Under the pieces are notes generated by a model. The model saw only the letters and a program-made list of their open reading frames with translations. It searched no databases and was not told the DNA's origin. The position numbers and the translations under genes were made by a program. DNA of 64,000 nt from Candidatus Amesbacteria bacterium GW2011_GWB1_47_19 (GTDB lineage Bacteria > Patescibacteriota > Microgenomatia > CAZETR01 > Amesbacteraceae), in contig LCNZ01000007.1 of assembly GCA_001002325.1 (NCBI GenBank), forward strand, positions 26,763-90,762, given 5' to 3'. Positions 1,220 through 63,577 of the stretch are shown here, piece after piece. How positions within the stretch are numbered: position 1 is the first letter of the stretch; every line of letters starts with the position of its first letter.

Positions 1220-2026
1220 ATGAATCTGATTCAGGTATTGGTGCTGGCGGCGGTGGAAGGGGTGACGGAGTTTTTGCCGGTATCGTCGACCGGTCACTTG
1301 ATTTTGGCGGTGAACGCGGCGGGAATAATGCAATCGGAATTTGTGAAGAGCTTTGAGATTGCCATCCAGCTGGGAGCGATTAGCGCCGTAGTGGTCTTGT
1401 ATTGGCGAAAAATAACGACGGATATGGAGGTATTGAAGAGAGTGGCGGCGGCATTTGTGCCGACGGGAATAGCGGGAATATTGGCGTACCGGTTTGTAAA
1501 ATCTTATTTGCTGGGGAATGCGGGAGTAACAATAGCGGCGCTTTTGATAGGAGGAGCGGGGTTGATAGTATATGAAAAATTCAAAATTCAAAATACTGGC
1601 AAAGCCAGCGCTGCGCGAGCAAAATTCAAATTAAATTCAAATTACAAAATTCAAAACTTGGATTATTGGAAGTGTATAGGGATCGGATTGATGCAGGCGG
1701 TGGCGATGGTGCCGGGAGTGAGCCGGGCGCTGATGACCATCATCGGGGGGGAGGCGATGGGACTGTCGCGCAGGGAAGCGGTGGAGTTTTCGTTTATGCT
1801 GGCTATTCCGACGATGGCGGCGGCTACAGGATGGGATCTGGTGAGAAGTGGGTGGGGGTTTTCCGGCGGGCAGTGGGGACTGCTGGCGGCGGGGTTTTTG
1901 GCGGCGGCGGTAACGGCGGCTGTGACCGTCAAGTGGCTGGTGGCCTGGGTGAAGCAGCAGCACAATCTGGAGATATTCGGATGGTACAGGATAGCGCTGG
2001 CAGGCGGGTGGTGGCTATTTGCCTAA
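1220..2026 (+). CDS. uppP: Undecaprenyl-diphosphatase (UppP/BacA) with in-frame repeat insertion
   Basis: N-terminal 'VEGVTEFLPVSSTGHL' and 'PGVSR' motifs are typical of UppP. A ~25 aa insertion (KFKIQN...) is encoded by the AAATTCAAA repeat. Confidence 0.85.
   Translation: MNLIQVLVLAAVEGVTEFLPVSSTGHLILAVNAAGIMQSEFVKSFEIAIQLGAISAVVVLYWRKITTDMEVLKRVAAAFVPTGIAGILAYRFVKSYLLGNAGVTIAALLIGGAGLIVYEKFKIQNTGKASAARAKFKLNSNYKIQNLDYWKCIGIGLMQAVAMVPGVSRALMTIIGGEAMGLSRREAVEFSFMLAIPTMAAATGWDLVRSGWGFSGGQWGLLAAGFLAAAVTAAVTVKWLVAWVKQQHNLEIFGWYRIALAGGWWLFA
1575..1658. repeat. In-frame AAATTCAAA-type heptad repeat element with GC-rich core (gccagcgctgcgcgagc) inside uppP
   Basis: The sequence aaaattcaaaattcaaaat...gccagcgctgcgcgagc...aaaattcaaattaaattcaaattacaaaattcaaaa is visible directly. 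Confidence 0.8.
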
Positions 2027-2189
2027 CGCTTCGCGGAAAAGAGAACCGATGAAGCGGGCTGTATTGAAGAGGGTGTGGAGCAGGACCTGGACAATGCGGC
2101 CGGCGACATGGGGTAAATTCCGGGAGACGGAGATTTTGATCTTTTCTGACGTAGAGTTTTGGTAATCTGTGGAGTCCATGCGGATGCGG

Positions 2190-2570
2190 TCAGGGCAGGG
2201 TCCGGCTAATCTGGACCGTACCTCCGGTGCGGAGAGTGAAGGTGGCCTGGAGGATGAAGTTTTTGGGACTGACGTCATATACACATTTACCGGAAGAGCA
2301 GGTACCTAGAATCTGGCGGCGGGTGGAACGGGTAGTGCGGCGTTTGGTAAAGAACCCGCCTTCGAAACCCTTGGTAACGGATGCAGCAGTGTCGTAAGTC
2401 AGGGCATAGTTTACTTTGGAAACAGTGGTGAGGCCGGTAAATGCTACATAAATGTAGTGACGGTTGCCCGAAACTGAGAGGGAAATATTGGGGGGGGAGG
2501 CGGCGGAAACGGGGAAAGAAGTTGTGAATAGTAACAGAAAAAGGGAGCACAGGGATACCAGAAGCTTCAT
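2190..2570 (-). CDS. Small secreted protein, hypothetical
   Basis: N-terminal signal peptide MKLLVSLCSLFLLLFTTSFPVSAAS; 126 aa. Confidence 0.5.
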   Translation of the reverse strand: MKLLVSLCSLFLLLFTTSFPVSAASPPNISLSVSGNRHYIYVAFTGLTTVSKVNYALTYDTAASVTKGFEGGFFTKRRTTRSTRRQILGTCSSGKCVYDVSPKNFILQATFTLRTGGTVQISRTLP

Positions 2571-2597
2571 GGATCAAGTTTAGCATATAATTACCAT

Positions 2598-3200
2598 ATG
2601 AAGCCAAGGTGGCGGCAAGCGGTTTTGGGGATTCTGCTGATTGCGGGGATGGTGTTCACAGTATGGGATTACAGGGATTGGAAATGGGAAGAGACACGGA
2701 AGTACGGGCACGGGTATGAAGACCAGCTGGCACCGGCGGTAGCCCTGACCAGGACGTATCAGAATGACCTGGTGCGGGTGAGACTGAAGTATCCGGAAGA
2801 ATGGGAAATAAATGAAATTTCAAATTCTGCCTTGACATTTGAGGAGATGGTGAAGGAGGGGGGAAGGGTGGTGGTGGCACAGTGGCCGGGAAAAATGACC
2901 TTGAGTATAGAAAAAACAACCCGGGGGCTGCCGGATATCGCGGATGAGGAAGTGCGGTTATTGAATAAGGCGGGAGTAAATTTGAGCAAGGAAAGGGAAT
3001 ATATCAGCACCCAGGAGACGAATATGACGGTGTTGACCTGGGAGAAACCAAATGCTGTCCGGCAGCAGGAAGTGATTCAGAGAGGGCTGGCAGAAAAGAA
3101 GGGCAGACTGGCGGTGGCGGAAGCCAAAGTTTCCCAGGCAGACTGGCTGAAATGGGGAAAAACATTTTGGGAAATATACCGCAGTATCATAATTTTCTGA
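2598..3200 (+). CDS. Membrane-anchored hypothetical protein
   Basis: N-terminal TM helix (ILLIAGMVFTVW); 200 aa ORF. Confidence 0.45.
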   Translation: MKPRWRQAVLGILLIAGMVFTVWDYRDWKWEETRKYGHGYEDQLAPAVALTRTYQNDLVRVRLKYPEEWEINEISNSALTFEEMVKEGGRVVVAQWPGKMTLSIEKTTRGLPDIADEEVRLLNKAGVNLSKEREYISTQETNMTVLTWEKPNAVRQQEVIQRGLAEKKGRLAVAEAKVSQADWLKWGKTFWEIYRSIIIF

Positions 3201-7453: not shown

Positions 7454-8524
7454 ATGGTAAAAGTGGCTGTTAACGGTTTCGGGAGGATCGGGAGACTGGC
7501 TTTAAGGATAGGGTTACTGAAGCATCATAACGAAATGGAATTTGCGGCGATCAATACTTCCGGGTCCATGGAGGTTGAGGGATGGGCGCATCTGGTAATG
7601 CAGGATACGACGTACAGGAGGTTTGAGATAGAGATAGAGATAGAGAAAATGAGATTGGTCAAAGAAACGACAGATGAAGATCCGCTGATCGGGTATCTGG
7701 TGGTGCCGAGCATGAATTTGAGGATACCGGTACTGGCACAGAAAGATCCGGAGAAGCTGCCCTGGGGTAAATACGGGGTGGAGGTGGTGATGGAGTGTAC
7801 CGGGAAGTTTACGGATGAGGATGGGGCGATGAAACACGCCAAGGCCGGAGCAAAAAAAGTGATCATTTCGGCGCCCAGCAAGGGGGGAAACGTGGGGACG
7901 TATGTGATGGGGGTAAATGAAGTAAACGGGAATGTAAAAGCAATTTCCAATGCATCTTGTACGACAAATTGCGTGACGCCAGTGGCGGCGGTGATGCATG
8001 CCAAGTTCGGTATCGCCAAGGCGATGATGACGACGGTGCATGCATATACCGACGACCAGGTGCTTCAGGACGGATCGCATAAAGATCTGCGCCGAGCCAG
8101 GGCAGCAGCGGTTAACATAGTGCCGACTTCCACGGGAGCGGCAATTGCCACAACCGAAGTGATACCTGAATTGAAGGGTCTATTTGACGGGATTTCTCTG
8201 CGGGTACCAGTGGTGACGGGATCAATTTCCGACTTTGTGTTTGTGACAAAAAGAAACGTTACCCGGGAGGAAATAAACGAGGCATTCAAGGAGGCGACGC
8301 AAAATTCCCAATATAAAGGGATTTTGGGGATGTCCGGAACAGACGGAGTGCCGGAACACTTGGTGAGCAGTGACATTATCGGCGGTAGTTACAGTGCAAT
8401 TATTGATCCTGAATTTACCCAGGTGATAGACGGGAATCTGGTGAAAGTACTGGCATGGTATGACAATGAGTGGGGGTATGCCAACCGGCTGGTGGAACAA
8501 ACGATAAGACTGGGCAGTGAATGA
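7454..8524 (+). CDS. gap: Glyceraldehyde-3-phosphate dehydrogenase with in-frame EIEIEIE insertion
   Basis: 'VAVNGFGRIGR', 'SNASCTTNC' (catalytic Cys) and 'WYDNEWGY'. A (GAGATA)n tract encodes EIEIEIE after 'YRRF'. Confidence 0.9.
   Translation: MVKVAVNGFGRIGRLALRIGLLKHHNEMEFAAINTSGSMEVEGWAHLVMQDTTYRRFEIEIEIEKMRLVKETTDEDPLIGYLVVPSMNLRIPVLAQKDPEKLPWGKYGVEVVMECTGKFTDEDGAMKHAKAGAKKVIISAPSKGGNVGTYVMGVNEVNGNVKAISNASCTTNCVTPVAAVMHAKFGIAKAMMTTVHAYTDDQVLQDGSHKDLRRARAAAVNIVPTSTGAAIATTEVIPELKGLFDGISLRVPVVTGSISDFVFVTKRNVTREEINEAFKEATQNSQYKGILGMSGTDGVPEHLVSSDIIGGSYSAIIDPEFTQVIDGNLVKVLAWYDNEWGYANRLVEQTIRLGSE
7625..7645. repeat. (GAGATA)n microsatellite, in frame in gap (encodes EIEIEIE)
   Basis: gagatagagatagagatagag. 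Confidence 0.8.
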
Positions 8525-12780: not shown

Positions 12781-13818
12781 ATGCCGAAGGGAGTTTTAAA
12801 TCCAAAAGTATTTGAGAAAGATTTGGAGAAGAAAGCTACAAGAGACGGATATGGGCGGGGTTTGATGGAATTGGGGGAGATGAATGAAAAAGTGGTGGTG
12901 CTGACTGGAGATTTGAAGGAGAGTACGCGGGCGGAGGAATTTTTTAAGAAGTATCCGGAAAGAAGCATTGAGTGCGGGGTGGCAGAGCAAAATATGACGG
13001 GAATTGCGGCGGGATTGGCGGCGGCGGGAAAAATTCCGTTTGTGTCTTCGTATGCGGTGTTTTCCCCGGGCAGGGCTTGGGATCAGGTACGCGTTTCGGT
13101 CTGTTATTCCAACCTCAATGTAAAAATCTCCGGAGCACATACCGGGGTATCGGTGGGGCCGGACGGAGCGACGCACCAGGCGTTGGAAGATATTGCCATC
13201 ATGCGGGTACTGCCCAATATGACGGTGGTGGTACCGTGTGATGAGATTGAAACCCGGAAAATGACGCTGGCTGCGGCGTCCTGTCCCGGGCCGGTGTATT
13301 TCCGGTTTGCGAGAGAAAAAACAGCGGTGATTACTACGGAAGAAATGCCATTTGAAATGGGGAGGGCGGAGGTGTATTGGGATTCTGATAATTTTCAATT
13401 TTCAATTTTCAATTTTCAATCAATTTCAAAATTTTCAAATCTCAAAAACCAAATCGCAATAATTGGTTGCGGTCCGTTACTTTATGATTGTTTGGTCGCG
13501 GCGAAGGAACTTCATGGGGAGGGGATAGGGACGATGGTGATCAATAACCATACGGTGAAACCAATGGATGAAAAAACGATTATTGAGGCGGTGGAAAAAT
13601 GCGGGGCGGTGGTGACCGTGGAGGAACATCAGGTGAGCGGGGGGATGGGGTCGGCGGTGGCGGAAGTGCTGGCACGGAATTTACCGACTCCGATGGAATT
13701 TGTAGGGATGCCCGATAAATTCGGGGAATCGGGGGAACCGGGGGAACTGCTGAAAAAATACGGAATGGATGTCGCCTCTATAAAAATGGCCATTAAGAGA
13801 GTATTAGCGAGAAAGTAA
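12781..13818 (+). CDS. Transketolase, C-terminal subunit with in-frame repeat insertion
   Basis: 'KATRDGYGRGLMELGE' and 'VGPDGATHQALEDIAIMR' match TktC. The insertion 'NFQFSIFNFQSISKF' is encoded by an AATTTTC tandem. Confidence 0.85.
   Translation: MPKGVLNPKVFEKDLEKKATRDGYGRGLMELGEMNEKVVVLTGDLKESTRAEEFFKKYPERSIECGVAEQNMTGIAAGLAAAGKIPFVSSYAVFSPGRAWDQVRVSVCYSNLNVKISGAHTGVSVGPDGATHQALEDIAIMRVLPNMTVVVPCDEIETRKMTLAAASCPGPVYFRFAREKTAVITTEEMPFEMGRAEVYWDSDNFQFSIFNFQSISKFSNLKNQIAIIGCGPLLYDCLVAAKELHGEGIGTMVINNHTVKPMDEKTIIEAVEKCGAVVTVEEHQVSGGMGSAVAEVLARNLPTPMEFVGMPDKFGESGEPGELLKKYGMDVASIKMAIKRVLARK
13389..13452. repeat. In-frame AATTTTC tandem repeat element inside the transketolase C-terminal gene
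   Basis: aattttcaattttcaattttcaattttcaatcaatttcaaaattttcaaatctcaaaaaccaaatcgcaataattgg. Confidence 0.8.
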
Positions 13819-14126: not shown

Positions 14127-14505
14127 ATTCATAGATACTAACGTTTTTATAGAAATATTTGCCAGGAAGGGAATCAATTCTGAAAAATCAATAAAGTTAT
14201 TAAAAGAAAATCGGGATTTGATGACTACGAGTTTGGTGATATCTGAAATTGAATGGGTATTGAGGAGTGCATATCTTCTGGACAGACAAGTTATATCAAA
14301 ATATATCGGCAGTGTTTTGTCATCTGATATTATTATAGAAAATAAAAAAACTTTGATAAATACATTGAACTTTTATGGGGCTAATTTAGCGGATTGGGCT
14401 GATTGTTTAAATATGTTTGGCTTAAAGGAAAAGAATATATCCACGGTTTATTCTTATGATAGGGGATTGAACATATATAAATGGATAAAACGAAGGGAGC
14501 CATAA
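14116..14505 (+). CDS. PIN-domain toxin (VapC-like)
   Basis: 'FIDTNVFIE' N-terminal PIN motif. Overlaps the upstream antitoxin by 11 nt. Confidence 0.6.
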   Translation: MGYKFIDTNVFIEIFARKGINSEKSIKLLKENRDLMTTSLVISEIEWVLRSAYLLDRQVISKYIGSVLSSDIIIENKKTLINTLNFYGANLADWADCLNMFGLKEKNISTVYSYDRGLNIYKWIKRREP

Positions 14506-14515
14506 TCAGGACAGG

Positions 14516-17247: not shown

Positions 17248-17324
17248 CGGGGCTCGGCGTCCGGCTGCGATGCTATTTGCTGGGATACCTGTGCGCCGGA
17301 TTACCAAGATGTTATAAATAATAT

Positions 17325-18311: not shown

Positions 18312-18315
18312 TTGA

Positions 18316-18341: not shown

Positions 18342-18345
18342 CAGT

Positions 18346-33249: not shown

Positions 33250-33780
33250 ATGGGCAAGATTTATACAAAAAAGGGAGATAAGGGCAGGACAAAAACTTTC
33301 AGAGGGGAAATGGGTAAAAGCGATGCTTTGGCGGAGGCGTTGGGGAGCATTGATGAGGTGAACAGCTGGATAGGAGTGTGCAGACAACAAATTTTCAATT
33401 ACCAATTTTTAAAAATTGATGCTGCATTGAAGAGGATTCAGGGCAATTTATTGACTATCGGGTCGGGGCTGGCGGGGAGCAAATTGAGAATTGGGAGCGG
33501 AGAAGTGAGAAATCTGGAGAAATTAATCGATAAATTAACGGCGGATTTGCCGAAACTGACGAATTTTATTTATCCGGTAGGAGAGCTGCAGGTGGCAAGG
33601 AGTGTCGCTCGCCGATGCGAGCGACGGATCGTTAGTTATTCGTTATTCATTGATCGTGACAAAAAGAAAGTTGATAAAAAAATATTAGTGTACCTGAACA
33701 GACTATCGGATGCGTTGTTTGTTATGGCAAGGTGGGTAAATTACCAGCGGGGGATAGGAGAAGAAGTCTGGCGGGGGTGA
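33250..33780 (+). CDS. ATP:cob(I)alamin adenosyltransferase, PduO-type
   Basis: 'MGKIYTKKGDKGRT' N-terminus is characteristic of PduO/MMAB-type adenosyltransferases; ~176 aa. Confidence 0.7.
   Translation: MGKIYTKKGDKGRTKTFRGEMGKSDALAEALGSIDEVNSWIGVCRQQIFNYQFLKIDAALKRIQGNLLTIGSGLAGSKLRIGSGEVRNLEKLIDKLTADLPKLTNFIYPVGELQVARSVARRCERRIVSYSLFIDRDKKKVDKKILVYLNRLSDALFVMARWVNYQRGIGEEVWRG
33388..33420. repeat. Short AATTTTC-type repeat fragment, in frame
   Basis: acaaattttcaattaccaatttttaaaaattg. Confidence 0.4.
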
Positions 33781-40425: not shown

Positions 40426-40448
40426 TGTGAGTTCTTTTATAAGGCGCG

Positions 40449-41083: not shown

Positions 41084-41116
41084 AATCGAAGACTAAACCT
41101 ATAGTATAATGTAAGG

Positions 41117-47100: not shown

Positions 47101-47329
47101 GCAGCAGGATATGGTGGAATGGGGACGGACTTATATTGAGCAGCCGCCTATTTCGCAGGAAATGCAGGCAAAGATTGATACGGAAGTAAAAAGAATCATG
47201 GACGAAGGATATCTGAAGGCGGTTGCCATATTAAAAAAATACCGGAAAAGGCTGGATGCCGTATCGCTGAGACTTCTGGAAATTGAAACTATGGACGGGG
47301 ATGAGTTTGAGAAGATCATGAAGGCGTAA
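44183..47329 (+). CDS. ftsH: ATP-dependent zinc metalloprotease FtsH, interrupted by an in-frame intein in the Walker A P-loop
   Basis: N-terminal TM helices, AAA motifs (GPSGVGK|...|[15 protein letters not shown], '[13 protein letters not shown]'), and the Zn-protease 'HEVGHAIV'. At 1048 aa it is too long because a 426-aa insert sits between GK and T of GxxGxGKT. Confidence 0.9.
44870..46147 (+). mobile_element. Intein (426 aa) with LAGLIDADG homing-endonuclease domain, inserted in the FtsH P-loop
   Basis: Begins with Cys1 (CVTGDTIIW) and contains a TxxH block B (GTPEHPV). The two LAGLIDADG motifs are '[12 protein letters not shown]' and '[12 protein letters not shown]'. The intein ends with ...VYDF...GFVNHN followed by the +1 Thr of the extein (TLLARAV). 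Confidence 0.85.
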
Positions 47330-47338: not shown

Positions 47339-48262
47339 ATGAACAAATTGTTACTGGTTGACGGGAATGCGGTGCTGCACCGGGCATATTATGCCCTGCC
47401 GGATTGGAGAAACAGATCCGGGGAGGCGACGGCGGGAGTATACGGATTTTTGTCCATGATTTTGAAAGCGATTGAGGAGCTGAAGCCGACGCATCTGGCA
47501 GTAGTGTTTGACTGCCCGGAACCAACCTTCAGACACACCATGTACGTGGGGTATCAGGTGACGCGGGAGAAGGACAGGCAGGTATCGGAAGATATCTGGG
47601 GACAAGTGGAGAAATTGAAGATCGTATTTGAAAAAATGGGGGTTCCGGTATTTGCCGTACCCAGTTTCGAGGCGGATGACGTGATAGGTACTCTGGCGAA
47701 GCAGTCGACGGACGGAGAAGTAATTATTATTACAGGGGACAGGGATCTGATGCAGTTGGTAAATGAAAAAGTGAAACTATTTATGCCGCAAAAAGGTCTT
47801 TCTGATGCGGTGCTGGTCGACGGCGAAAAAGTCATACAAAGACTGGGAGTGCATCCGAAGCAAGTTGTGGACTACAAGGGGCTGATGGGAGACAGCAGTG
47901 ATAATTATCCGGGAGTGGCGGGTATCGGGCCGAAAACCGCGGCGCACCTGCTGGCGGAGCACGGTTCGCTTAAAGATATTTATAAACAAATCACAAATAC
48001 AAAACCGAATGATACGAAGAAACCGAAGATAGTACCCGCTATCACCGACAAATTGATAAAGGGCTATGATGCGGCGATGCTGTCGAAACAATTGGCGACG
48101 ATCAGAACTGACGTGCCGGTGAGTTGGGAGCCGGAAAAGGCTTCGGTTCCGAGTGAAGAAAAAATACTGGCAGTACTGAAGGAATTGGGGTATAAGAGCT
48201 TAGTAAAACGAATCAACCAGAATGAAGAGATTGATGAAAACCAACAAAAATTGTTTGAGTAG
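47339..48262 (+). CDS. 5'-3' exonuclease (stand-alone Pol I-type FEN domain)
   Basis: 'LLLVDGNAVLHRAYYAL' and 'GDSSDNYPGVAGIGPKTAAHLL' (H3TH). Confidence 0.8.
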   Translation: MNKLLLVDGNAVLHRAYYALPDWRNRSGEATAGVYGFLSMILKAIEELKPTHLAVVFDCPEPTFRHTMYVGYQVTREKDRQVSEDIWGQVEKLKIVFEKMGVPVFAVPSFEADDVIGTLAKQSTDGEVIIITGDRDLMQLVNEKVKLFMPQKGLSDAVLVDGEKVIQRLGVHPKQVVDYKGLMGDSSDNYPGVAGIGPKTAAHLLAEHGSLKDIYKQITNTKPNDTKKPKIVPAITDKLIKGYDAAMLSKQLATIRTDVPVSWEPEKASVPSEEKILAVLKELGYKSLVKRINQNEEIDENQQKLFE

Positions 48263-48268: not shown

Positions 48269-49438
48269 ATGAATGTTGCTTTGGTACATGATTACCTGAA
48301 GGAACCCGGGGGGGCGGAAGCGGTACTGATAGCTTTGAAAGAAATCTGGCCGGAAGCACCGGTCTATACGGCGTATAAGTTTCCCCGTTTTTGGGGAAGA
48401 TATAAAACGATGTTGGACAAATGGGTGATACATGAAAGCTGGGGAAAATATTTACCATTCCTGCCGAAGTTACTGAGCCACTACACCATCCTGTCTCCGC
48501 TGTTTTTTGAGAGTTTTGATTTGACGAAATATGACCTGGTAGTGGTTTCGGCTGCCGGCGGATATTTTCCAAACGCTGTGAAAATCGGGCCGAAGACAAA
48601 GCTGGTGACTTATTGCCATACCCCCCCCCGGTTTCTGTACGGATATGATACGGCGACAAAAGAGCGATTTAAGTGGTATTGGAGACCGGTTTCAGAAATT
48701 GCCAACCATATTTTACGGATGGTGGATTTTAAGCTGGCCCAAAGACCGCATTTGTTTATTGCCAATTCGAAAAATGTCAGAAACAGGATAAGGAAGTTTT
48801 ACAGAAGAGAGGCGGAGGTGGTGTATCCCCCGATTGAAATTCAAAATTCAAAAAATAAAAATCAAATCAAAAACAAGCAAAGCTTGCGCTACGCGAATAA
48901 AAATCAAATATTCAAAAGGGATTATTTTGTGATTGTGTCGAGAATTATCGGATCAAAAAATATCGAACTGGCGGTGGAGGCGGCGAACCAGTTTAAGTTT
49001 AAGTTGAAGATAGCAGGGAGACCAATTGGTAAAGGCGGAGATGAGATTGCTGCTAAAATCCGGGGGAAATATACAGAATACCTGGGGGAGGTAAGCGAGG
49101 ACGGAAAGGCAAATTTATTGGCAGGAGCGAAGGCTTTTCTGGCACTGGAAAAAGATGCAGATTTCGGGATGACAGCAGTGGAGCCTCAGGTTTACGGAAC
49201 ACCGGTGATTGCTTTTCGAAACGGGGGATATCTGGAGGCGGTGGAGAAAAATAAAACGGGAATATTTTTTGATGAACTGACCCCGAAAGGACTGTGGAGT
49301 GCTATCGGCCAGTTTAATAAAATGAAGTGGAATAGAAAGTTAATCCAAAATAATGCAGCCAAATTTTCCAAAGAGAGATTTATCCGGGAAATATTAATCC
49401 AAATTAATAATATAAATAAACATGCCGGAATTGCCTGA
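48269..49438 (+). CDS. Family 4 (GT1-fold) glycosyltransferase with in-frame repeat insertion
   Basis: C-terminal 'E.FG...EA...G.PVIA' GT4 motif region (FGMTAVEPQVYGTPVIAF); insertion 'IQNSKNKNQIKNKQSLRYANKNQIFK'. Confidence 0.7.
   Translation: MNVALVHDYLKEPGGAEAVLIALKEIWPEAPVYTAYKFPRFWGRYKTMLDKWVIHESWGKYLPFLPKLLSHYTILSPLFFESFDLTKYDLVVVSAAGGYFPNAVKIGPKTKLVTYCHTPPRFLYGYDTATKERFKWYWRPVSEIANHILRMVDFKLAQRPHLFIANSKNVRNRIRKFYRREAEVVYPPIEIQNSKNKNQIKNKQSLRYANKNQIFKRDYFVIVSRIIGSKNIELAVEAANQFKFKLKIAGRPIGKGGDEIAAKIRGKYTEYLGEVSEDGKANLLAGAKAFLALEKDADFGMTAVEPQVYGTPVIAFRNGGYLEAVEKNKTGIFFDELTPKGLWSAIGQFNKMKWNRKLIQNNAAKFSKERFIREILIQINNINKHAGIA
48835..48918. repeat. AAATTCAAA-type repeat element with GC hairpin core (gcaaagcttgcgctacgcg), in frame in the GT4 gene
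   Basis: attcaaaattcaaaaaataaaaatcaaatcaaaaacaagcaaagcttgcgctacgcgaataaaaatcaaatattcaaaag. Confidence 0.75.
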
Positions 49439-51661: not shown

Positions 51662-52711
51662 ATGCGGATACTGCAGGTGATATTGAAGAATTTCAGGAAT
51701 TATAAGGAGGCTGAGTTTGAACCGGAAGTAAAGACGGTGGTATACGGATCAAACGGGAGTGGGAAAAGTAACCTGTTGGAGGCCATCTATCTGGCTGCCA
51801 CAGGGAAAAGCTTCAGAGCGGAGAGAGATGACGAGATGATCAGATACGGGGAGAAATTTTCAATTTTAAATTTTCAATTTTTAAATAATTCTCAAATTTT
51901 CAATTTCCAAATCACCTTAACTGACGGGAGTATAGGGGTGACCAGGAAGAAATTTGAAGTGAACGGGATACCCAAGAGGATGGTGGATTTTGCGGGCAGA
52001 CTGAGGGCGGTGCTTTTCGGACCACAGGATATTGAGCTGGTGACGGGAAACCCAAGCGGGAGGAGACGATATCTGGATTTTGTAATTTTTCAGACAGACA
52101 GGGAATACAGAAGATGCCATTTGTCATATGAAAAGGGCTTACGACAAAGGAATAAACTGCTGGATTTTATCAGGGACGGAGCAGCAGGCAGGAACCAGCT
52201 GTTTTTTTGGGACAAATTGCTGATAAAGAACGGGGAGTACATTACTCAAAAAAGAACCGAATATATTGAATTTTTAAATGGTTTCAAAGAGGCAGGGGGG
52301 CAGAGATACAAAGTGGAATATGACAAAAGCCTGATTTCCCAGGTGAGACTGGAGCAGTATGCCCAAGAGGAGATCGCTGCAGGTAATACACTGGTGGGAC
52401 CACATAGGGATGACTTCGTCATTAAAATTCAAAATGATTGGAAGGATGTGAGTAAATATGGATCCCGGGGGGAGCAGAGGATGGCGGTATTGTGGCTGAA
52501 ACTGGGGGAGTTAAAGTTTTTGTCGGAGGATGTACAGCAACCGGTATTGCTGCTTGATGATATTTTTTCGGAATTGGACCACAAACACAGACGTGAGATA
52601 GAGATAGAGATAGAGAGCCTGGTGGAGAAAGGGGGACAGGTGATCATGACTACTGCCGATGAGCATCTGGTGCCGACCGACGGATGGAATATAATTAAAT
52701 TACCAATTTGA
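51662..52711 (+). CDS. recF: DNA replication/repair protein RecF with two in-frame repeat insertions
   Basis: Walker A 'GSNGSGKSNLLEAIY' and signature 'LLDDIFSELD'. Insertions 'FSILNFQFLNNSQIFNFQ' and 'REIEIEIE'. Confidence 0.85.
   Translation: MRILQVILKNFRNYKEAEFEPEVKTVVYGSNGSGKSNLLEAIYLAATGKSFRAERDDEMIRYGEKFSILNFQFLNNSQIFNFQITLTDGSIGVTRKKFEVNGIPKRMVDFAGRLRAVLFGPQDIELVTGNPSGRRRYLDFVIFQTDREYRRCHLSYEKGLRQRNKLLDFIRDGAAGRNQLFFWDKLLIKNGEYITQKRTEYIEFLNGFKEAGGQRYKVEYDKSLISQVRLEQYAQEEIAAGNTLVGPHRDDFVIKIQNDWKDVSKYGSRGEQRMAVLWLKLGELKFLSEDVQQPVLLLDDIFSELDHKHRREIEIEIESLVEKGGQVIMTTADEHLVPTDGWNIIKLPI
51854..51912. repeat. AATTTTC-type repeat element, in frame in recF
   Basis: aaattttcaattttaaattttcaatttttaaataattctcaaattttcaatttccaaa. 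Confidence 0.75.
52595..52617. repeat. (GAGATA)n in frame in recF (EIEIEIE)
   Basis: gagatagagatagagatagagag. Confidence 0.8.
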
Positions 52712-52737
52712 AATATTAAATTTGAAATCAATTTGCA
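52712..52737. repeat. Intergenic AT-rich repeat of the same family (atttgaaat/ttcaattttcaa)
   Basis: aaatattaaatttgaaatcaatttgcaatgattcaattttcaa spans the recF-nnr spacer. Confidence 0.5.
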
Positions 52738-53601
52738 ATGATTCAATTTTCAACAGATCAATTAAAAGAGTTGTGGCAACCAAAAGTTGATTCATATGGG
52801 GAGGATAACGGACAAGTGACAATTATCGGGGGATCAAGACTGTTTCACGGGGCACCGATTCTGGCCCTGAGAGCGGCATCACGGTTGGCGGACATGGTAT
52901 TTTTTGCCTCACCGGAGCCAACATCGGGGGAAGTGGCGGCGAAGATTAAATCCAAACTCTCAAGTTTTATCTGGGTACCATGGGGGGAAGTTGAAGAGTA
53001 TATCAAGAAATCCGACGCAGTACTTATAGGGCCAGGATTGATGCGCTTTAAGCGGGAAGATTCAAGATTTAAGATTCAGGATTTAAGAAAAAGTTTAGAT
53101 GAAGCAGGAACTTTGACCAGGTCTATAACAAAATATTTGTTACAAAAATTTCCTGAAAAACAGTGGGTGATTGACGGGGGGAGTCTGCAAGTGATGGAGG
53201 CGGAGTGGATACCTAAAAATGCCATTTTGACGCCGAACCGGAAGGAGTATGAATCGCTGTTTAAATTTCAATTTTCAATTTCCAATTTTCAAACATTTGC
53301 CCAAAAATATAAATGCGTTATTGTGTATAAAAACCCTGTGAGTTACGTAACTGATGGGGAGATGACTTATGAAATAACCGGAGGTAATGCTGGTTTGACC
53401 AAAGGGGGGACCGGGGATGTACTTGCGGGAGTGACGGCCGGTTTGGCGGCTAAAAACGTACGGATGTTGGCAGCAGGTGCGGCTATCTGGTTGGTGAAAA
53501 AGACAGCCGATATGTTATTTGAGAAGGTGGGATATGCTTATAACGCGGACATGCTGGCGGAGGAAATTTTTGAGACATACCGGCAGTTTGTGGTAGATTG
53601 A
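52738..53601 (+). CDS. NAD(P)H-hydrate dehydratase (YjeF C-terminal / Nnr family) with in-frame repeat insertion
   Basis: 'GGSRLFHGAPILA' and 'GGTGDVLAGV'; insertion 'FKFQFSISNFQTF'. Confidence 0.7.
   Translation: MIQFSTDQLKELWQPKVDSYGEDNGQVTIIGGSRLFHGAPILALRAASRLADMVFFASPEPTSGEVAAKIKSKLSSFIWVPWGEVEEYIKKSDAVLIGPGLMRFKREDSRFKIQDLRKSLDEAGTLTRSITKYLLQKFPEKQWVIDGGSLQVMEAEWIPKNAILTPNRKEYESLFKFQFSISNFQTFAQKYKCVIVYKNPVSYVTDGEMTYEITGGNAGLTKGGTGDVLAGVTAGLAAKNVRMLAAGAAIWLVKKTADMLFEKVGYAYNADMLAEEIFETYRQFVVD
53272..53302. repeat. AATTTTC-type repeat, in frame
   Basis: taaatttcaattttcaatttccaattttcaa. Confidence 0.75.
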
Positions 53602-56692: not shown

Positions 56693-58399
56693 ATGACATT
56701 TCCGGAGCTGGCAGAGTGTTTGGAGGAATTGGAGAAGACGGGATCAAGATTGGAAATGACCAGGTTGCTGGCGGAATTATACAAAAAGGTAACCCCCTAT
56801 GAAGGAAGGCTGGTGGCATACCTAAGCCAGGGAAGACTAGGACCGGCTTACAACAATCCGAATTTCGGAGTGGCGGACAAAATGATGGTACGGGTACTGG
56901 GACCTGAAGCGGAAAAACTGTTTAAGCAATTGGGGGATTTGGGCATGGTGGCGGAAAAACTCAAAGCTCAAAACCCCAAATCCAAATCAAATTCAAAAAT
57001 CAAAATTCAAAAAGTGTACGGGTTACTAAAGGAAATTGCCGGTGAGGGGGGAGCCGGGAGTCAGGAGAAAAAACTGGAATTGATAAAGATTTTACTGTCG
57101 GATTTAGGCCCGTTGGAAGCAAAATACGCGACGAAAATGATATTGGGGAAATTAAGGTCCGGTTTTTCGGATATGACGGTGTTAGACAGCCTGTCGTGGA
57201 TGGTAACCGGGGATAAATCATTAAGAAAGGAAATTGAAAGGGTTTACAATGTCAGAGCGGACTTGGGAGAGGTAGTGCGGTTGGTGAAAGAGGCGGGGAG
57301 CGGTGAGAAAATCAAGAAGCTAGAGGTTGAACCGGTGTGGGGAACACCCGTGCTTGTAGCCAGAGCGGAGCGGGCTAAAACCATAGCCGAGATTTGGAAG
57401 AGGAATGGGGAAAGTGTTGCCGAACACAAGCTGGACGGATTGAGAATTCAGGCGCATGTTTCCAAATCACAGGTGAAATTATTTTCCAGAGGCCTGGAGG
57501 ATGTGACGGCGATGTATCCGGATATTGCAGAAGGATTACTTAAACAAGTCCATACCACATGCATTTTGGACGGGGAGATGATAGCCCTGGACGGCAGAGG
57601 CAGATACCTGCCGTTTCAGGAGACTGCACAGCGGAAACGCAAGTACGGGATTACGGAAATGATACGGAACGTGCCTCTGAAATATTTTGTTTTTGACTTG
57701 TTGATGGCTAACGGTAAAAGTTTGTTGGAGGAGGCAAATAGTGAGAGGTGGAGCAGGCTTGAGAAAATCATAGGGGTCGGAGGTATTGTTAAATTAATTC
57801 CCCGCAGAGTTGTCAAGTCAGAAGCCGAAATCGGGAAATTTTTTGAGGATTCGCTAAGAGAGGGGACGGAGGGAATAATGGTGAAAAGAGCGGAAGGGAG
57901 ATATCAATCCGGATCCAGGGACTTTAATTGGATAAAGTATAAAAAAAGTTATGATGCGAGCGGGATGGCGGATACCATTGATGCGGTAGTGCTGGGTTAT
58001 GATGCTGGGGAGGGTAAACGTTCCGGTTTTGGAATCGGGGGATTTTTGATAGGGGTAAAAGGGGACGGGTCCGATAAATATTTGACAATCGCAAAAATTG
58101 GAACCGGCCTGAAGGATGACGAGTGGAGAGAGCTGAAGAGACGGTGTGAAGAAATTAAACTTTTGGAAAAACCCGACAATTACGAGGTGGGGAAGCAGAT
58201 GGGATGTGATGTCTGGGTCAGGCCGAAAATCGTGGTGGAAATAAAAGCGGATGAAATAACCAAGTCTCCGATGCACACATCCAAACTGGCCCTGAGATTT
58301 CCCAGACTGGTAAGTTTCAGAGATATGAAAATCGAGGATGCGACCAGCATGAAAGAAATTGAGCGGCTATATAAATTACAAAAAGAAGGAGGTGATTGA
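56693..58399 (+). CDS. ATP-dependent DNA ligase (archaeal/eukaryotic-type) with in-frame repeat insertion
   Basis: 'EHKLDGLRIQAHV' KxDG adenylation motif and an OB domain; insertion 'KAQNPKSKSNSKIKIQK'. Confidence 0.8.
   Translation: MTFPELAECLEELEKTGSRLEMTRLLAELYKKVTPYEGRLVAYLSQGRLGPAYNNPNFGVADKMMVRVLGPEAEKLFKQLGDLGMVAEKLKAQNPKSKSNSKIKIQKVYGLLKEIAGEGGAGSQEKKLELIKILLSDLGPLEAKYATKMILGKLRSGFSDMTVLDSLSWMVTGDKSLRKEIERVYNVRADLGEVVRLVKEAGSGEKIKKLEVEPVWGTPVLVARAERAKTIAEIWKRNGESVAEHKLDGLRIQAHVSKSQVKLFSRGLEDVTAMYPDIAEGLLKQVHTTCILDGEMIALDGRGRYLPFQETAQRKRKYGITEMIRNVPLKYFVFDLLMANGKSLLEEANSERWSRLEKIIGVGGIVKLIPRRVVKSEAEIGKFFEDSLREGTEGIMVKRAEGRYQSGSRDFNWIKYKKSYDASGMADTIDAVVLGYDAGEGKRSGFGIGGFLIGVKGDGSDKYLTIAKIGTGLKDDEWRELKRRCEEIKLLEKPDNYEVGKQMGCDVWVRPKIVVEIKADEITKSPMHTSKLALRFPRLVSFRDMKIEDATSMKEIERLYKLQKEGGD
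56958..57013. repeat. AAATTCAAA-type repeat, in frame in the ligase gene
   Basis: aactcaaagctcaaaaccccaaatccaaatcaaattcaaaaatcaaaattcaaaaa. Confidence 0.7.
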
Positions 58400-58742: not shown

Positions 58743-59352
58743 TCCGGCTGGCATGCAGGAAATCATCCGGCAATACGGGGTGTCGGACAGGCGGGTGTTG
58801 GAAGCAATGGCCGGCGTAGACCGGGCTGAGTTTGCGGGAGAGGAAAATAAATCCAGGGCGTACGAAGATACGGCTTTACCGATAGGGCATGATCAGTGGA
58901 TTTCACAACCCTATACTGTTGCCAGGATGCTGGAGCTATTAATTTTCAATTTTCAATTTTCAATTTTCAATTCAAAAGTGTTGGAGATCGGGACGGGGAG
59001 TGGATGGCAGACTGCCTTGCTGGCGAAACTGTTTAAACGGGTGTATTCCATAGAAATTGTGCCAGAGTTGGCCCGGCTGGCAGAAATGAGAATTGAGAAA
59101 TCAGATCTGAGAAATGTCAAAATAAAAATCGGGGACGGGAAGGAAGGCTGGAAGAAGTACGCGCCGTATGAGGCGATCATTTGCGGGGCGGACGCTGAGG
59201 AAGTACCGGGGGCATGGATGGAGCAATTGGCGGCCGGGGGAAGGATTGTGACACCGGTAAGGGGAGTGATGACCAGGGTTACAAAAATTCGAAATCCCAA
59301 AAACTTCAAAACGGAGAAGTTTGAGAATTACGTATTTGTGCCTCTGGTGTAG
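58735..59352 (+). CDS. pcm: Protein-L-isoaspartate O-methyltransferase with in-frame repeat insertion
   Basis: 'ISQPYTVARMLELL' and 'VLEIGTGSGWQTALLA' SAM motif; insertion 'IFNFQFSIFNS'. Confidence 0.8.
   Translation: MSDPAGMQEIIRQYGVSDRRVLEAMAGVDRAEFAGEENKSRAYEDTALPIGHDQWISQPYTVARMLELLIFNFQFSIFNSKVLEIGTGSGWQTALLAKLFKRVYSIEIVPELARLAEMRIEKSDLRNVKIKIGDGKEGWKKYAPYEAIICGADAEEVPGAWMEQLAAGGRIVTPVRGVMTRVTKIRNPKNFKTEKFENYVFVPLV
58940..58977. repeat. (AATTTTC)x4 tandem, in frame in pcm
   Basis: ttaattttcaattttcaattttcaattttcaattcaaa. Confidence 0.8.
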
Positions 59353-59669: not shown

Positions 59670-60224
59670 ATGGTGAAGATAATATTGGGACTGGGTAATC
59701 CGGGGGTGGAATATGCGGGGACGAGGCATAACTGCGGCGTACTGTTGGTAGACCGAATTTTCAATTTACTATTTCGAGGTCAAGGATCTCGCGCTTCGCG
59801 ATCAATTTTCAATGACGGCTATGGGTGGAGGAGAACCAAGGACATTTTTTTGGCTGAGTTTCCGGATCTGGTACTGGTGAAAACCGCAGGGTTGTTTATG
59901 AATGAATCTGGCAAAATGATTCATGACTTAAAATTCAAGAATTATGATTTCGGGAATCTATTTGTTGCGCACGACGACCTCGATATTAAACTGGGAGAAT
60001 ATAAAATTCAGAAGGGGGTGGGGCCGAAGGAACATAACGGGGTTTTGTCGGTGGAGCAAGCGTTGGGGACAAAGGAGTTTTGGAGAGTCAGAATTGGGAT
60101 AGAAAACCGGCAGCTTGCGGTTGATGGGGAAACATATGTATTACAGAGATTTAGCCCGGAAGAAAAGGAAATAATTGAAAGTATGATCGAGAAAGCCGCC
60201 CGGGAATTGACAGCGGGCCTATAA
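59670..60224 (+). CDS. pth: Peptidyl-tRNA hydrolase with in-frame repeat insertion
   Basis: 'ILGLGNPGVEYAGTRHNCG' matches the Pth N-terminus (catalytic His); insertion 'FNLLFRGQGSRASRSIFN'. Confidence 0.8.
   Translation: MVKIILGLGNPGVEYAGTRHNCGVLLVDRIFNLLFRGQGSRASRSIFNDGYGWRRTKDIFLAEFPDLVLVKTAGLFMNESGKMIHDLKFKNYDFGNLFVAHDDLDIKLGEYKIQKGVGPKEHNGVLSVEQALGTKEFWRVRIGIENRQLAVDGETYVLQRFSPEEKEIIESMIEKAARELTAGL
59756..59815. repeat. AATTTTC-type repeat with GC hairpin core (gatctcgcgcttcgcgatc), in frame in pth
   Basis: gaattttcaatttactatttcgaggtcaaggatctcgcgcttcgcgatcaattttcaatg. Confidence 0.75.
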
Positions 60225-62201: not shown

Positions 62202-62243
62202 TCATTGATTGCCTCAGCCGGGGTATGTTATACATATCATGCA

Positions 62244-62564
62244 ATGGCGGTGGTACATTTGACAAAAGCGGATTTTGGAGAGAAGACGAAGGGCGGAATG
62301 GCGATGGTGGATTTTTGGGCGGAATGGTGCGGACCATGCAAGATGGCAGCACCGGTGATCGAAGAACTGTCAAAAGAATATGAGGGTAAAGTGATGGTGG
62401 CCAAGGTGGATGTAGACGCAGAGCCGGATCTGGCCGGAAAATTCGGGGTGATGAGTATACCGACGGTGGTGTTACTCAGAGACGGGAAAGAAATCGCCAG
62501 GCAAGTGGGGTTTGCGGGGAAGCCGGGTTATGTGCAGCTTTTACAAAAAGCTGAAGCTGCGTAA
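62244..62564 (+). CDS. trxA: Thioredoxin
   Basis: 'WAEWCGPCK' active site; ~107 aa from ATG 62244. Confidence 0.85.
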   Translation: MAVVHLTKADFGEKTKGGMAMVDFWAEWCGPCKMAAPVIEELSKEYEGKVMVAKVDVDAEPDLAGKFGVMSIPTVVLLRDGKEIARQVGFAGKPGYVQLLQKAEAA

Positions 62565-62566
62565 TC

Positions 62567-63577
62567 TTGAATATGGACAATCTATTTGATGTGATTGTTG
62601 TAGGGAGCGGGCCGGCGGGACTGACGGCGGCGATTTATACATCCCGGGCTGATCTGAAGACGAAGGTGGTAGCCGGAAGCAAGTGGGGAGGACAATTGAT
62701 GCTGACAACCATGGTGGAAAATTATCCGGGATTTCCTGACGGAGTAATGGGACCGGAATTGATGGAGAGAATGCGCAAGCAGGCGGAAAGATTCGGTACA
62801 GTATTTGCGGACAAAGATGTGACAACTGTCGAGACCGGGGAAAAATTCTCCGTAAACATGGGGGGCGAAAAAGTTGAAGGGCGGTCGCTGCTGATTGCTA
62901 CGGGGGCGTTGACCAGGTGGATAGGAGTACCGGGTGAGGAAAAACTGATCGGGCGGGGAGTATCCACCTGTGCTCCGTGCGATGCGGCCTTTTTTAAAGG
63001 CAGAAAAGTGGCAGTAGTCGGAGGGGGAGACGCAGCGATGGAAGAAGCGCTGGTACTGACCAAGTTTGCCGAGGAAATTACCATAATCCACAGGAGAGAC
63101 GAGTTTAAAGCCAGTAAAATCATGCAGGACAGGGTACTAAACCACTTAAAAATTAGCGTGATGTGGAATACCGAGGTGGTCGAAGTATTGGGTGAAAGTA
63201 AAGTTGAGGGAGTGAGGCTGAAATCTCAAATTCCAAATCCCAAATCTCAAACAAATAAAAATTTTCAAAATCCGAAAAAGATCTCTGAGACAGCTTCGGA
63301 AATGGTGTGGGAAATGCAGGTTGACGGGGTGTTTGTAGCCATCGGGCATGCACCGGCATCGGAATTGTTCAAGGGGAAAGCGGAAACGGATGAAAAAGGG
63401 TTTATTTTAAGGGGTAAAAATGAAACTTACCGGACGATGACGAATATCCCGGGAGTGTTTGTGGCCGGGGATGTGCATGACGGAGTGTACAAGCAGGCGG
63501 TTACCGCCGCCGGGTACGGGTGTGAAGCAGCATTGGAAATTGAAAAGTGGTTGGAGGAGAAAGCTGTCACGGGTTGA
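62567..63577 (+). CDS. trxB: Thioredoxin-disulfide reductase with in-frame repeat insertion
   Basis: 'DVIVVGSGPAGLTAAIY', redox 'CAPCD' (CAxC) and NADPH-binding 'VVGGGDAAMEEA'; insertion 'SQIPNPKSQTNKNFQNPKKISETA'. Confidence 0.85.
   Translation: MNMDNLFDVIVVGSGPAGLTAAIYTSRADLKTKVVAGSKWGGQLMLTTMVENYPGFPDGVMGPELMERMRKQAERFGTVFADKDVTTVETGEKFSVNMGGEKVEGRSLLIATGALTRWIGVPGEEKLIGRGVSTCAPCDAAFFKGRKVAVVGGGDAAMEEALVLTKFAEEITIIHRRDEFKASKIMQDRVLNHLKISVMWNTEVVEVLGESKVEGVRLKSQIPNPKSQTNKNFQNPKKISETASEMVWEMQVDGVFVAIGHAPASELFKGKAETDEKGFILRGKNETYRTMTNIPGVFVAGDVHDGVYKQAVTAAGYGCEAALEIEKWLEEKAVTG
63215..63300. repeat. AAATTCAAA/TTTTCAA-type repeat element, in frame in trxB
   Basis: aaatctcaaattccaaatcccaaatctcaaacaaataaaaattttcaaaatccgaaaaagatctctgagacagcttcgga. 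Confidence 0.7.

Follow-up and report, generated by a model that had tools for sequence, protein, structure and literature searches.

In-frame heptanucleotide arrays and a GC-rich core in housekeeping genes of a Candidatus Amesbacteria genome

Host genes and strand composition

The window analysed here is a 64,000-nucleotide stretch of Candidatus Amesbacteria bacterium GW2011_GWB1_47_19 (contig LCNZ01000007.1, positions 26,763 to 90,762 of the forward strand). Some of its conserved genes carry short tandem arrays of A/T-rich heptanucleotide units (heptads) inside their coding sequences, and three of these tracts are broken by a small GC-rich core. Pfam matches identify the host genes as those for UppP/BacA, the C-terminal subunit of a split transketolase, a PduO-type adenosyltransferase, a family 4 glycosyltransferase (GT4), RecF, NAD(P)HX dehydratase (nnr), an ATP-dependent DNA ligase, Pcm, Pth and TrxB.

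The + strand holds the majority of the window genes and is strongly purine-loaded (G 31.5%, C 16.9%). GC skew stays at about 0.3 all along the window, with values of 0.2-0.39 per 2-kb bin. A uniform and extreme strand composition of this kind (G about 0.32, C about 0.16) extends over positions 1-64000 and is also a property of the related loci L001, L003, L137 and L138. At a similar protein distance, the loci L125, L131 and L132 have G 0.24 and C 0.19 and contain no heptad array. Strong G/C skew and heptad arrays co-occur across the Amesbacteria lineages compared.

Repeat tracts in coding DNA

The tracts are built from head-to-tail units of AATTTTC, AAAATTC, AAATTTC and AAATCYC. Tandem Repeats Finder and our own scan recover at most 4.6 perfect units in a row, at 13390 and 58941, and the density of arrays is about one per 5-7 kb. 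Copies measure 19 to 85 nt, and units differ inside this single genome. Unit types follow one another in unlike orders in the transketolase, trxB and ligase genes, hence no fixed element architecture is present. On the + strand of the window, G-free runs of at least 30 nt number 11, against 0.35 expected from codon shuffles, and runs of at least 40 nt number 7, against 0.01. Nine period-7 arrays were counted in the window compared with 0.1 in shuffles. Period 7 is the commonest of all repeat periods there, which is odd for a coding region, 7 not being divisible by 3.

An earlier description made from the letters of the window (the sequence-only reading) had listed clear tracts in nine genes: uppP, the transketolase C-terminal gene, the GT4 gene, recF, nnr, the ligase gene, pcm, pth and trxB. 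All nine lie where that description placed them, together with a weaker copy in the PduO-type adenosyltransferase gene (Table 1). It had also assigned a copy to the recF/nnr spacer. A tract is present at that place; it is of the opposite type (AATTTGA), includes the recF stop codon TGA (52709-52711) and reaches the nnr start codon (52738). Copies beyond that list comprise three in nnr (the short tract and the second site among them), two in pcm and an A-rich insert in a 5'-3' exonuclease gene.

Every host open reading frame (ORF) continues through its tract, as the sequence-only reading had held. The peptides that would be translated from the tracts, among them FQFSIFNF, KFKIQN and KSQIPNPKSQ, are of the two types it described; IFNFQFSIFNSK and FKIQNTGK also occur. 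A heptanucleotide repeat gives the same seven-residue repeat in any phase, because all three phases are read. Among heptad classes with six A/T positions, 42 of 128 are stop-free, and 33 of these contain C. Forms of the type A(n)T(m)C are all open, and those of the type A(n)T(m)G are all closed. The G-free appearance of the tracts, the lack of antisense arrays and the repaired stops of G-type arrays follow from this, because only C-separated A/T units stay open. Since the open-frame rule suffices, no strand-specific function is needed. Programmed frameshifting or translational bypass was also considered and set aside as unnecessary, because every copy is in frame and stop-free.

The tracts recur unchanged in independent data. 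Pcm, RecF and ligase proteins, tracts included, are identical in the bins RIFOXYB1_FULL_47_13, GW2011_GWB1_47_19 and GWA1_44_24, and up to 17 contigs of NCBI, ENA, JGI and Logan assemblies encode the same proteins. The only differences among members of these clusters are point substitutions here and there and the choice of start codon. The tracts are not assembly artefacts, because independent assemblies carry them in identical form, and the artefact alternative named by the sequence-only reading fails at the level of the assemblies. Collapse in a de Bruijn graph, considered as the cause of the array length of about 31 nt, was rejected because the arrays are identical across different assemblers.

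Repeats of other short periods were noted in the same window. A hexamer, (GAGATA)x3.7, occurs at three loci (7625-7646, 19187-19221 and 52595-52616); its recF copy encodes EIEIEIE and adds 3 aa relative to L001 and L003. An octamer repeat (AGAGTGTA / GTAAGAGT, about four units) occupies two unrelated loci, 20821-20856 and 34175-34205. The unit AATTTTC was also compared with a CodY half-site, which was ruled out: CodY is a regulator of Firmicutes, and its box is palindromic.

Table 1. Repeat tracts, GC-rich cores and associated segments in the window
Feature	Positions	Strand	Description
uppP left arm	1575..1595	+	(AAAATTC)x2.7, encodes EKFKIQN
uppP GC core	1596..1620	+	CTGGC-AAA-GCCAG, then CGC-TGC-GCG, then AGC
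uppP right arm	1621..1659	+	AAATTC / AAAATTC units
Transketolase C-terminal subunit tract	13388..13455	+	(AATTTTC)x4.4, then AAATCTC-type units
PduO-type adenosyltransferase, weak or decayed copy	33384..33417	+	G-free over 34 nt
5'-3' exonuclease A-rich insert, possibly related	47976..48029	+	no heptad array; terminal 9-nt AAACCGAAG repeat
GT4 left arm	48837..48873	+	AAATTCA / AAAATC units
GT4 GC core	48874..48897	+	CAAGC-AAA-GCTTG, then CGC-TAC-GCG
GT4 right arm	48898..48917	+	
recF tract	51854..51922	+	AATTTTC / AATTTTA units, over native beta-hairpin
recF end, spacer and nnr start	52688..52763	+	G-type AATTTGA units, then ATTCAATTTTCAA
nnr short tract	52945..52963	+	KIKSKLSS, +5 aa relative to L001 and L003
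nnr second site	53057..53088	+	(AAGATTC / AAGATTT)x4.6, insertion of +11 aa
nnr main tract	53260..53298	+	AAATTTC / AATTTTC
ATP-dependent DNA ligase tract	56956..57013	+	AAAACYC / AAATC / AAAATTC units
pcm site 1	58936..58977	+	(AATTTTC)x4.6
pcm site 2, no insertion	59082..59116	+	weak heptad AGAAATG / AGAATTG
pcm site 3	59292..59312	+	decayed AAATCCC-type tract
pth left arm	59757..59774	+	over end of helix 1
pth GC core	59775..59803	+	CGAGGTC-AAG-GATCTCG, then CGC-TTC-GCG
pth right arm	59804..59813	+	
trxB tract	63221..63273	+	AAATCTC / AAATTCC / AAATCCC units, then AAAATTTTC
trxB insertion remainder	63274..63316	+	degenerate core-like piece (GATCTCTGAGACAGCTTCGG), weakly similar to pth core

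Insertion and replacement in the host proteins

Comparison with solved structures, with the syntenic Amesbacteria loci L001, L003 and L125 and with database homologs separates the tracts into two classes, namely true insertions and overlays without net insertion. The sequence-only reading had treated all copies as additions at positions where orthologs have short loops. This holds for uppP, the transketolase gene, GT4, trxB, pth and the second nnr site. UppP gains 10 to 13 aa in a loop (13 in the comparison with E. coli UppP). The transketolase subunit carries about 20 aa in an interdomain linker, and its residues 213-236 are unmatched in the split transketolase 6YAJ. In GT4 the element adds 17 aa relative to L125, and the TrxB segment encoded by the tract and its remainder adds 20 to 26 aa that are found neither in L001, L003 and L125 nor in solved thioredoxin reductase structures. 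Pth has additions of 13 and 5 aa, and the exonuclease insert adds 10 aa and is absent from L125. Presence and absence between related genomes was seen for trxB, pth, GT4 and the second nnr site.

The expectation does not hold for recF, the ligase gene and pcm sites 1 and 2. There, a native hairpin or loop has been replaced, and L125 shows ordinary sequence, an outcome that the sequence-only reading had itself named as speaking against it. The RecF tract lies on a beta-hairpin of RecF 5Z69 with only about three extra residues, and the L125 segment is of similar length. In the Sulfolobus ligase 2HIV the linker is longer, so that no net insertion results; relative to L125 the tract adds 6 aa. At pcm site 1 the loop is equally long in L125 (GIEGWPVSKLKQYK) and exceeds that of Proteobacteria by 7 aa, and pcm site 2 is native sequence. 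The recF and pcm sites are occupied in all G-skewed relatives, so no presence/absence difference arises at them.

AlphaFold2 (AF2) models predict that the folds are kept. For Pcm, the predicted local distance difference test (pLDDT) is 91.8; site 1 is modelled as a loop between a helix and beta-strand 1 (helix 59-70 to strand 81-85), where the value drops to 83. UppP reaches 92.4, with 71 and 52 in the tract at residues 121-140 and more than 90 elsewhere.

Turnover at orthologous sites

Heptad arrays stand at the same sites in species with 55-70% protein identity, and their units and registers often differ. Pcm site 1 spans 12-13 codons (36-39 nt) in all five species and holds different units in them: (AATTTTC)4.6 in the window, decayed AATTTTC in L135, (AAGATTC)3-4 in L136, (AAATTTG)4 in L001 and (CAAAAGT/G)4 in L003. 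The L136 unit AAGATTC and its peptide SRFKIQDLR are those of the second nnr site of the window. Unit types are lineage-specific yet common to several loci, which gives them the appearance of dialects. At pcm site 3 the tracts of L135 and L136 are 13-14 aa longer than that of the window. Given that the same sites carry differing units and registers in diverged species, in-place repeat turnover fits better than transposition.

Orientation is not conserved: where one species has a C-type array, another may have a G-type array at the same site. Arrays that contain G would meet a TGA in each third unit. At this position L001 has ATT CGA, and the (AAATTTG)x4 array at pcm site 2 of L003 has ATT AGA, where the in-frame TGA has become AGA. 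A Rho utilization (rut) site or another RNA or single-strand signal was rejected as an identity for the tracts, because orientation is unconserved between orthologous sites.

The pth gene offers a graded series: no tract in L001, L003 and L125, arms only in L136, as (ARTATTC)4, and arms with a GC core in the window. At 2610-2640 of L136, an in-frame octamer (AACCAGTT / TACCGGTT, three units, 24 nt) lies in pth where the window has its 5-aa insert. This is another non-triplet period that follows the same three-unit rule.

Shared tracts are better conserved than their surroundings. Between the window and L135, identity in the pcm tract is 89% against 70% in the flanks, and at third codon positions 83% against 53%. 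The shared recF tract reaches 89% against 65% in flanking codons, and that of nnr 86% against 70%. Simple decay does not produce this pattern; the tracts are therefore held near a common unit or replaced wholesale. A RecF search of metagenomes returned 10 loci, all at 64% identity or less, and no relatives at intermediate distance by which gains and losses could be dated.

The GC-rich double-hairpin core

Three tracts of the window (uppP, GT4 and pth), among about 15 copies in total, are broken by a GC-rich core of 24-29 nt. The three palindromes quoted in the sequence-only reading are found in these genes. The core has the same layout in each: a stem of 5-7 bp capped by an A-rich triloop, then CGC-NNN-GCG, then A. 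All variants of stem 1 remain paired, namely CTGGC/GCCAG, CAAGC/GCTTG, CGAGGTC/GATCTCG and CGATC/GATCG (the last in L001 recF), and the GT4 and uppP cores differ by two compensatory pairs. Across six copies, 91.7% of the stem 1 cells are paired and three pairs have changed on both sides, with a structure that was derived from those same copies. No shuffle out of 500 reached the covariation score. As the structure was read from the six copies under comparison, the covariation is suggestive only.

Conservation of the core is independent of the reading frame. The uppP core is identical at 24 of 25 positions to the core at the same site of L137, against 61% identity between the two uppP genes. The window uppP reads it as GKASAARA and L137 as WQSQRFAS, and a near-identical core in L003 nnr is read in the third frame as LAEPALRE. 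An exact 24-nt core block stands with its arms in the main nnr site of L001 and L003 and also occurs in L001 recF; at the corresponding nnr and recF sites the window has uninterrupted arrays. The pth core is absent from L001, L003 and L125, and L136 has the arms alone. Conservation of this frame-independent kind suggests either that the nucleic acid itself is constrained or that the core has spread recently.

Searches for the core as a free-standing sequence returned little. In about 220 kb of DNA from relatives, a 17-nt core match with up to four mismatches occurred five times, and heptad arms flank four of these; the total is not above that of shuffled sequence. Mismatch-tolerant matches within the window likewise do not exceed chance, so that only the co-occurrence with heptad arms is meaningful; the GT4 core was recognised solely by its flanks and structure. 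There were no matches to the core in viral contigs and no Rfam family for tracts or core. The three-frame translations of the core, combined as a synthetic protein query, matched nothing at E values up to 10, and a generic search for GC islands between AT-rich flanks gave no more hits than shuffled sequence. Folding of whole elements revealed no significant structure except the two mini-hairpins (z scores from -2.0 to +0.5). A likeness of the core to a sigma-54 promoter was rejected, as the GT4 copy has no TGGCA.

Distribution beyond the window

Within the Amesbacteria loci compared, period-7 arrays are restricted to one lineage. The G-skewed loci contain 36 of them in 157 kb, together with 15 period-6 arrays and at most six of any other period; in 35 kb from weakly skewed relatives, which are about as distant at the protein level, none occurs. 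In about 60 homologs from Microgenomates and other members of the candidate phyla radiation (CPR), the UppP loop is full of heptad-type peptides, such as FKILNPKIQTN, SQIPNLKSQTNLKSQISNL and FSIFNFQ.

A scan of 185,579 species genomes with (AAWWTTC)3 returned at least 120 loci (L005-L124) and gives a qualitative picture across phyla. The matches listed include Nostocales, Bacteroidota, Acidobacteriota, several CPR groups and others; no Amesbacteria locus is among them. In this set, nearly all arrays are perfect and homogeneous repeats of AAAATTC, AATTTTC or AAATTTC, and their lengths, corrected for detection, are roughly flat from 21 to 34 nt and fall sharply from 35 nt. An open sense frame of at least 150 codons contains 49 of the 129 arrays among the matches listed, and none lies antisense in such a frame. 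Copies in frame are confirmed by Pfam in TatD, GluRS, LeuRS, UvrA, PfkB and IcmF of other phyla, again among the matches listed; those in TatD, GluRS, LeuRS and UvrA are perfect arrays of about 4.5 units. The same arrays are also found in other phyla, in isolate genomes and in complete ones. Heptad building blocks are thus not special to this genome or to CPR bacteria; their density inside housekeeping genes is.

Several further features of these loci were recorded. Nostocales copies with common flanks (AAATCAATTC ... AAAATTAAAGAAC) suggest a defined repeat family in that order. Loci with one array hold on average about 2.9 heptad arrays per 8 kb, among the matches listed. The saccharibacterial locus L112 (1-6461) has seven period-7 arrays in 7.8 kb, mostly outside long ORFs, and one of them (AATTTTG / AATTTCG) shows the same TGA-removing change from T to C. 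In other CPR homologs, the same permissive loops hold different in-frame inserts (SPLLIQERGKGRG, SPHPYPLPKEREL, NQALRDSSAAVGMT and PPSPPLNLRGE); these were seen in Pcm P0027, P0037 and P0056, in UppP P0166, P0173, P0179, P0181 and P0193, and in L003 GT4. Such inserts read like translated GC-rich palindromic repeats and appear to form a second class of in-frame repeat DNA in CPR genomes.

Origin of the arrays

The reading that we favour, and to which we give an even chance, describes the tracts as heptanucleotide arrays of microsatellite type and A(n)T(m)C form, located in coding DNA, filtered by the ORF and belonging to a G/C-skewed subclade of Amesbacteria. Repeat dynamics acting on the DNA would give rise to arrays, homogenise them and at times replace them. 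The proposed steps are slippage in replication or transient misalignment inside the array, with no transposase involved, and probably conversion between arrays at different loci. A selective filter would then act on the products. An array would survive only if its added length in nt is divisible by 3, its frame is free of stops and its place is a loop, linker or beta-hairpin where an amphipathic peptide is tolerated.

Slippage and conversion could, at about the same balance of belief and doubt, cover why period 7 dominates, why 6- and 8-nt arrays occur alongside and why units switch without change of length. In a similarly balanced judgement, they could also account for the overwritten native codons and for nucleotide conservation above that of the flanks. 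The observations in favour of this account include two more: the recF, pcm and ligase arrays overlay native structure with unchanged length, and the 6- and 8-nt repeats, in frame or at several loci, behave like the heptads.

Other observations weigh against it. A single slip of 7 nt frameshifts an essential gene, and stepwise growth in place is hard to picture. Strains at least 99% identical, in independent assemblies, show no length variation at three tracts, and the Pcm, RecF and ligase tracts are identical in cluster members at least 90% identical (a small sample), so that copy-number polymorphism was not seen. The same units stand at unrelated loci of one genome. Conservation of the tracts, third positions included, needs homogenisation or selection and goes beyond plain neutral decay. 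Finally, the core is near-identical across genomes and genes, of which simple slippage gives no account. The GC core is a second component of some arrays, conserved at the nucleic-acid level and not explained by slippage.

A non-autonomous mobile element is an unlikely but substantial alternative. According to this proposal, which follows the likeness to Rickettsia palindromic elements (RPEs) drawn by the sequence-only reading, the complete unit would resemble an RPE or a MITE (miniature inverted-repeat transposable element). It would consist of an AT-rich arm, a GC hairpin core and a second AT-rich arm, and would survive only in frame; copies with arms alone would then be decayed or partly excised elements, a corollary with the same low probability. 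The tracts do share with such elements a position in frame in unrelated conserved genes and compatibility with the fold, AF2 being confident outside them. The insertions specific to the lineage of the window (trxB, pth, GT4 and the second nnr site), the graded pth series, the near-identity of the 25-nt core in different genes, genomes and frames, the exact 24-nt block by which nnr and recF sites with and without the core differ, and the recurrence of units at many loci of one genome all agree with mobility.

However, the arms are direct rather than inverted, and neither terminal inverted repeats nor an overall palindrome was found beyond a mini-hairpin of 13-19 nt. Around the pth core, the repeated ATTTTCAAT belongs to the heptad arm and makes no convincing target-site duplication; trxB, GT4 and the second nnr site showed none. 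Lengths of 19-85 nt and variable unit order leave no full-length consensus. The core is present in 3 of about 15 window copies, its count is no higher than in shuffled sequence, and at 24 nt it is below the size of any known MITE or repetitive extragenic palindrome (REP). Arrays stand at orthologous sites despite 55-60% protein identity. No transposase is nearby in the 64-kb window, whose sole recombinase (37419-38294) belongs to a tRNA-linked island. What stands of the proposal is that the tracts are in frame and read through and that several are lineage-specific insertions; the inverted repeats and consensus of a mobile repeat were not found.

Comparably improbable is the idea that arrays and 25-nt GC double hairpin are parts of one coding DNA element of a new, frame-agnostic class. 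It would spread or renew itself through template switching or through conversion from array to array, with no transposase, and be under selection at the nucleotide level. Were it true, the element may be a lineage-specific self, uptake or protein-binding signal in episymbiotic CPR bacteria, and the 7-nt period would be an adaptation that lets one signal sit in any codon phase of any gene.

A lesser probability attaches to the view that arrays and core are functional nucleic-acid signals kept by selection and placed where proteins tolerate them, in the manner of DNA uptake sequences. Candidates, which we rate equally low, would be an RNA element or a site bound by a protein of the nucleoid, of segregation or of uptake. 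The excess conservation of shared tracts, third positions included, is what such selection would leave, as is a core with 24 of 25 identical positions in uppP genes that are 61% identical and read it in another frame. Stem 1 covariation (six copies, structure derived from them) and lineage-specific unit types common to several loci, like dialects, are also on this side. Yet orientation is unconserved, with C-type and G-type arrays at one site, and unit, register and length vary. The sister lineage L125 has no arrays, Rfam contains no match, and six core copies make the covariation test weak. Homogenisation by conversion explains the conservation equally well.

Selection on the peptides, with amphipathic FxIxN strands and hydrophilic KxKIQN loops as its object and the DNA period as a by-product, is very unlikely. 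The tracts map to a beta-hairpin in RecF and to loops and linkers elsewhere, relatives keep the alternating hydrophobic/polar pattern at pcm site 1, and the UppP loop holds such peptides in about 60 Microgenomates homologs. Nevertheless, perfect DNA repeats of 31-32 nt and conserved third positions go beyond what protein selection alone would give. The same peptide families occur in unrelated folds and in a membrane protein, one DNA core is read in three frames, and AF2 confidence falls in the tracts. An artefact of sequencing or assembly through collapsed low-complexity reads can be dismissed with near certainty: all sequences are metagenome-assembled and nothing was found in its favour, and besides the identical proteins of the NCBI, ENA, JGI and Logan assemblies, the ORFs lead into conserved domains on either side of the tract, related tracts lie at the same sites in related species, and the arrays recur in isolate and complete genomes of other phyla.

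Relation to known repeat systems

A literature search found no earlier report of heptad arrays in CPR genes, in agreement with the sequence-only reading, which knew of none for CPR-like genomes; coverage was incomplete, and the result is an absence of evidence only. Heptameric repeats were reported in 2007 to be over-represented in bacteria. The closest parallels are bacterial heptamer simple sequence repeats (SSRs), such as the short tandemly repeated repetitive (STRR) heptamers of heterocystous cyanobacteria and the GGGAATC / GGGGAYT repeats of Xanthomonas and Nostoc (PMC4692102). As here, tandem 7-nt units occur at many loci, the same loci are occupied in related species with different sequence and length, and polymerase slippage has been proposed (PMC4692102). 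The GGGAATC family favours about four units, and the cross-phylum arrays described above rarely exceed 34 nt, or about five units. At least three tandem units, over-representation and variation at orthologous loci, the marks of long-unit SSRs, were all found in the present arrays. Known heptamer families are mostly intergenic and under-represented in coding DNA (PMC4692102), and some are G-rich with G-quadruplexes, whereas the arrays of the window are A/T-rich, G-free on the coding strand, placed mid-gene and in frame.

Low-complexity regions of prokaryotic genes arise through short-repeat dynamics (PMC10120016). Studies of such regions and of simple repeats (PMC10120016, PMC3315296) describe, as here, slippage-driven repeats in genes where structure allows. 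Their units measure 1-6 nt and repeats are suppressed in the middle of proteins; they report no 7-nt family across loci. Contingency loci of Haemophilus and Neisseria also have non-triplet units inside ORFs, but these switch surface or restriction-modification genes through unit number (PMC2651432, PMC8262952). The present hosts are housekeeping genes, all arrays are in frame and strains do not vary, unlike phase-variable loci.

RPEs resemble the tracts as selfish-looking DNA that lies in frame in many unrelated metabolic genes of a reduced genome and is compatible with the fold. As described by Ogata et al. (2000 and 2002) and summarised in PMC10969869, they are palindromic, about 100-150 bp long, and form families with a full-length consensus and a conserved peptide. 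By contrast, the tracts here are direct tandem heptads of 19-85 nt; they lack a fixed consensus, and some of them are replacements. Palindromic amphipathic repeat coding elements (PARCELs) share the property of repeat DNA that encodes amphipathic peptide repeats in distant lineages. They are palindromic coding repeats linked to surface variability in Mollicutes and other microbes, and the accessible part of that source describes no 7-nt arrays in housekeeping genes (PMC2996958).

The GC core taken by itself can be set beside REPs, bacterial interspersed mosaic elements (BIMEs) and REP-associated tyrosine transposases (RAYTs), with which it shares a short GC-rich imperfect palindrome, dispersal and strand specificity (PMC3733652); covariation of its stem, a further trait of REPs, is suggestive only. 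It differs in its few, intragenic copies of 24-29 nt, in the lack of a GTAG or CGTC tag (the cores begin with CTGGC, CAAGC or CGAGG) and in that no RAYT gene was seen. As for DNA uptake, uptake signal sequences (USS) and DNA uptake sequences (DUS) are fixed 9-12-mers with hundreds to thousands of copies per genome and an orientation bias. The arrays do not have this form, as their units vary within one genome. What sets the present case apart is the dense occurrence of in-frame heptanucleotide microsatellites in the housekeeping genes of a CPR lineage, together with a conserved mini-hairpin.

Other features of the window and of related loci

A segment at 36945-41100 has low GC (0.42), reversed AT skew and the appearance of an integrated element. 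It contains a tRNA-Ile(TAT), a tyrosine recombinase (37419-38294, - strand), a tRNA-Met (38792-38867, - strand), a helix-turn-helix protein and a protein without family match, both on the - strand, and a group I intron. A tRNA-Ile with a UAU anticodon is uncommon. The intron (40447-40665, + strand) scores 71 bits in Rfam against a gathering score of 50 and matches the full-length model in a place where no gene is called. ARAGORN in intron mode found no host tRNA for it, and its 3' flank (GACCGGGCGCGACTCCCGGCCCCGCAACA) looks like a T-arm with an acceptor end.

The FtsH gene (44183-47329, + strand, 1048 aa) holds an intein in its AAA domain at residues of about 279-655. Intein_splicing and LAGLIDADG_3 domains are recognised in it, and a LAGLIDADG homing endonuclease is present. 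In the related locus L138, three 23S_rRNA_IVP genes for four-helix-bundle proteins (11793-12140, 14258-14608 and 18430-18792) stand amid genes of glycolysis and the pentose-phosphate pathway. Locus L002 has GIY-YIG and LAGLIDADG genes at 17219-18542.

Significance

About one in five to six housekeeping genes of the window, or about a dozen genes, carries an array of this kind. One would expect essential genes to be purged of non-triplet microsatellites in their interior. In practical terms, the tracts distort alignments and ortholog calls, and lineage-specific units could serve to mark strains. The GC core represents a small and concrete target in the search for a new function at the DNA or RNA level or for a minimal mobile unit. 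Over deep divergence, the arrays keep their places in the proteins even as their sequence is rewritten again and again. They offer a natural system in which to study how repeat dynamics and purifying selection create and keep protein insertions, what favours period 7 in bacteria, and how much sequence novelty the reduced proteomes of CPR bacteria tolerate.

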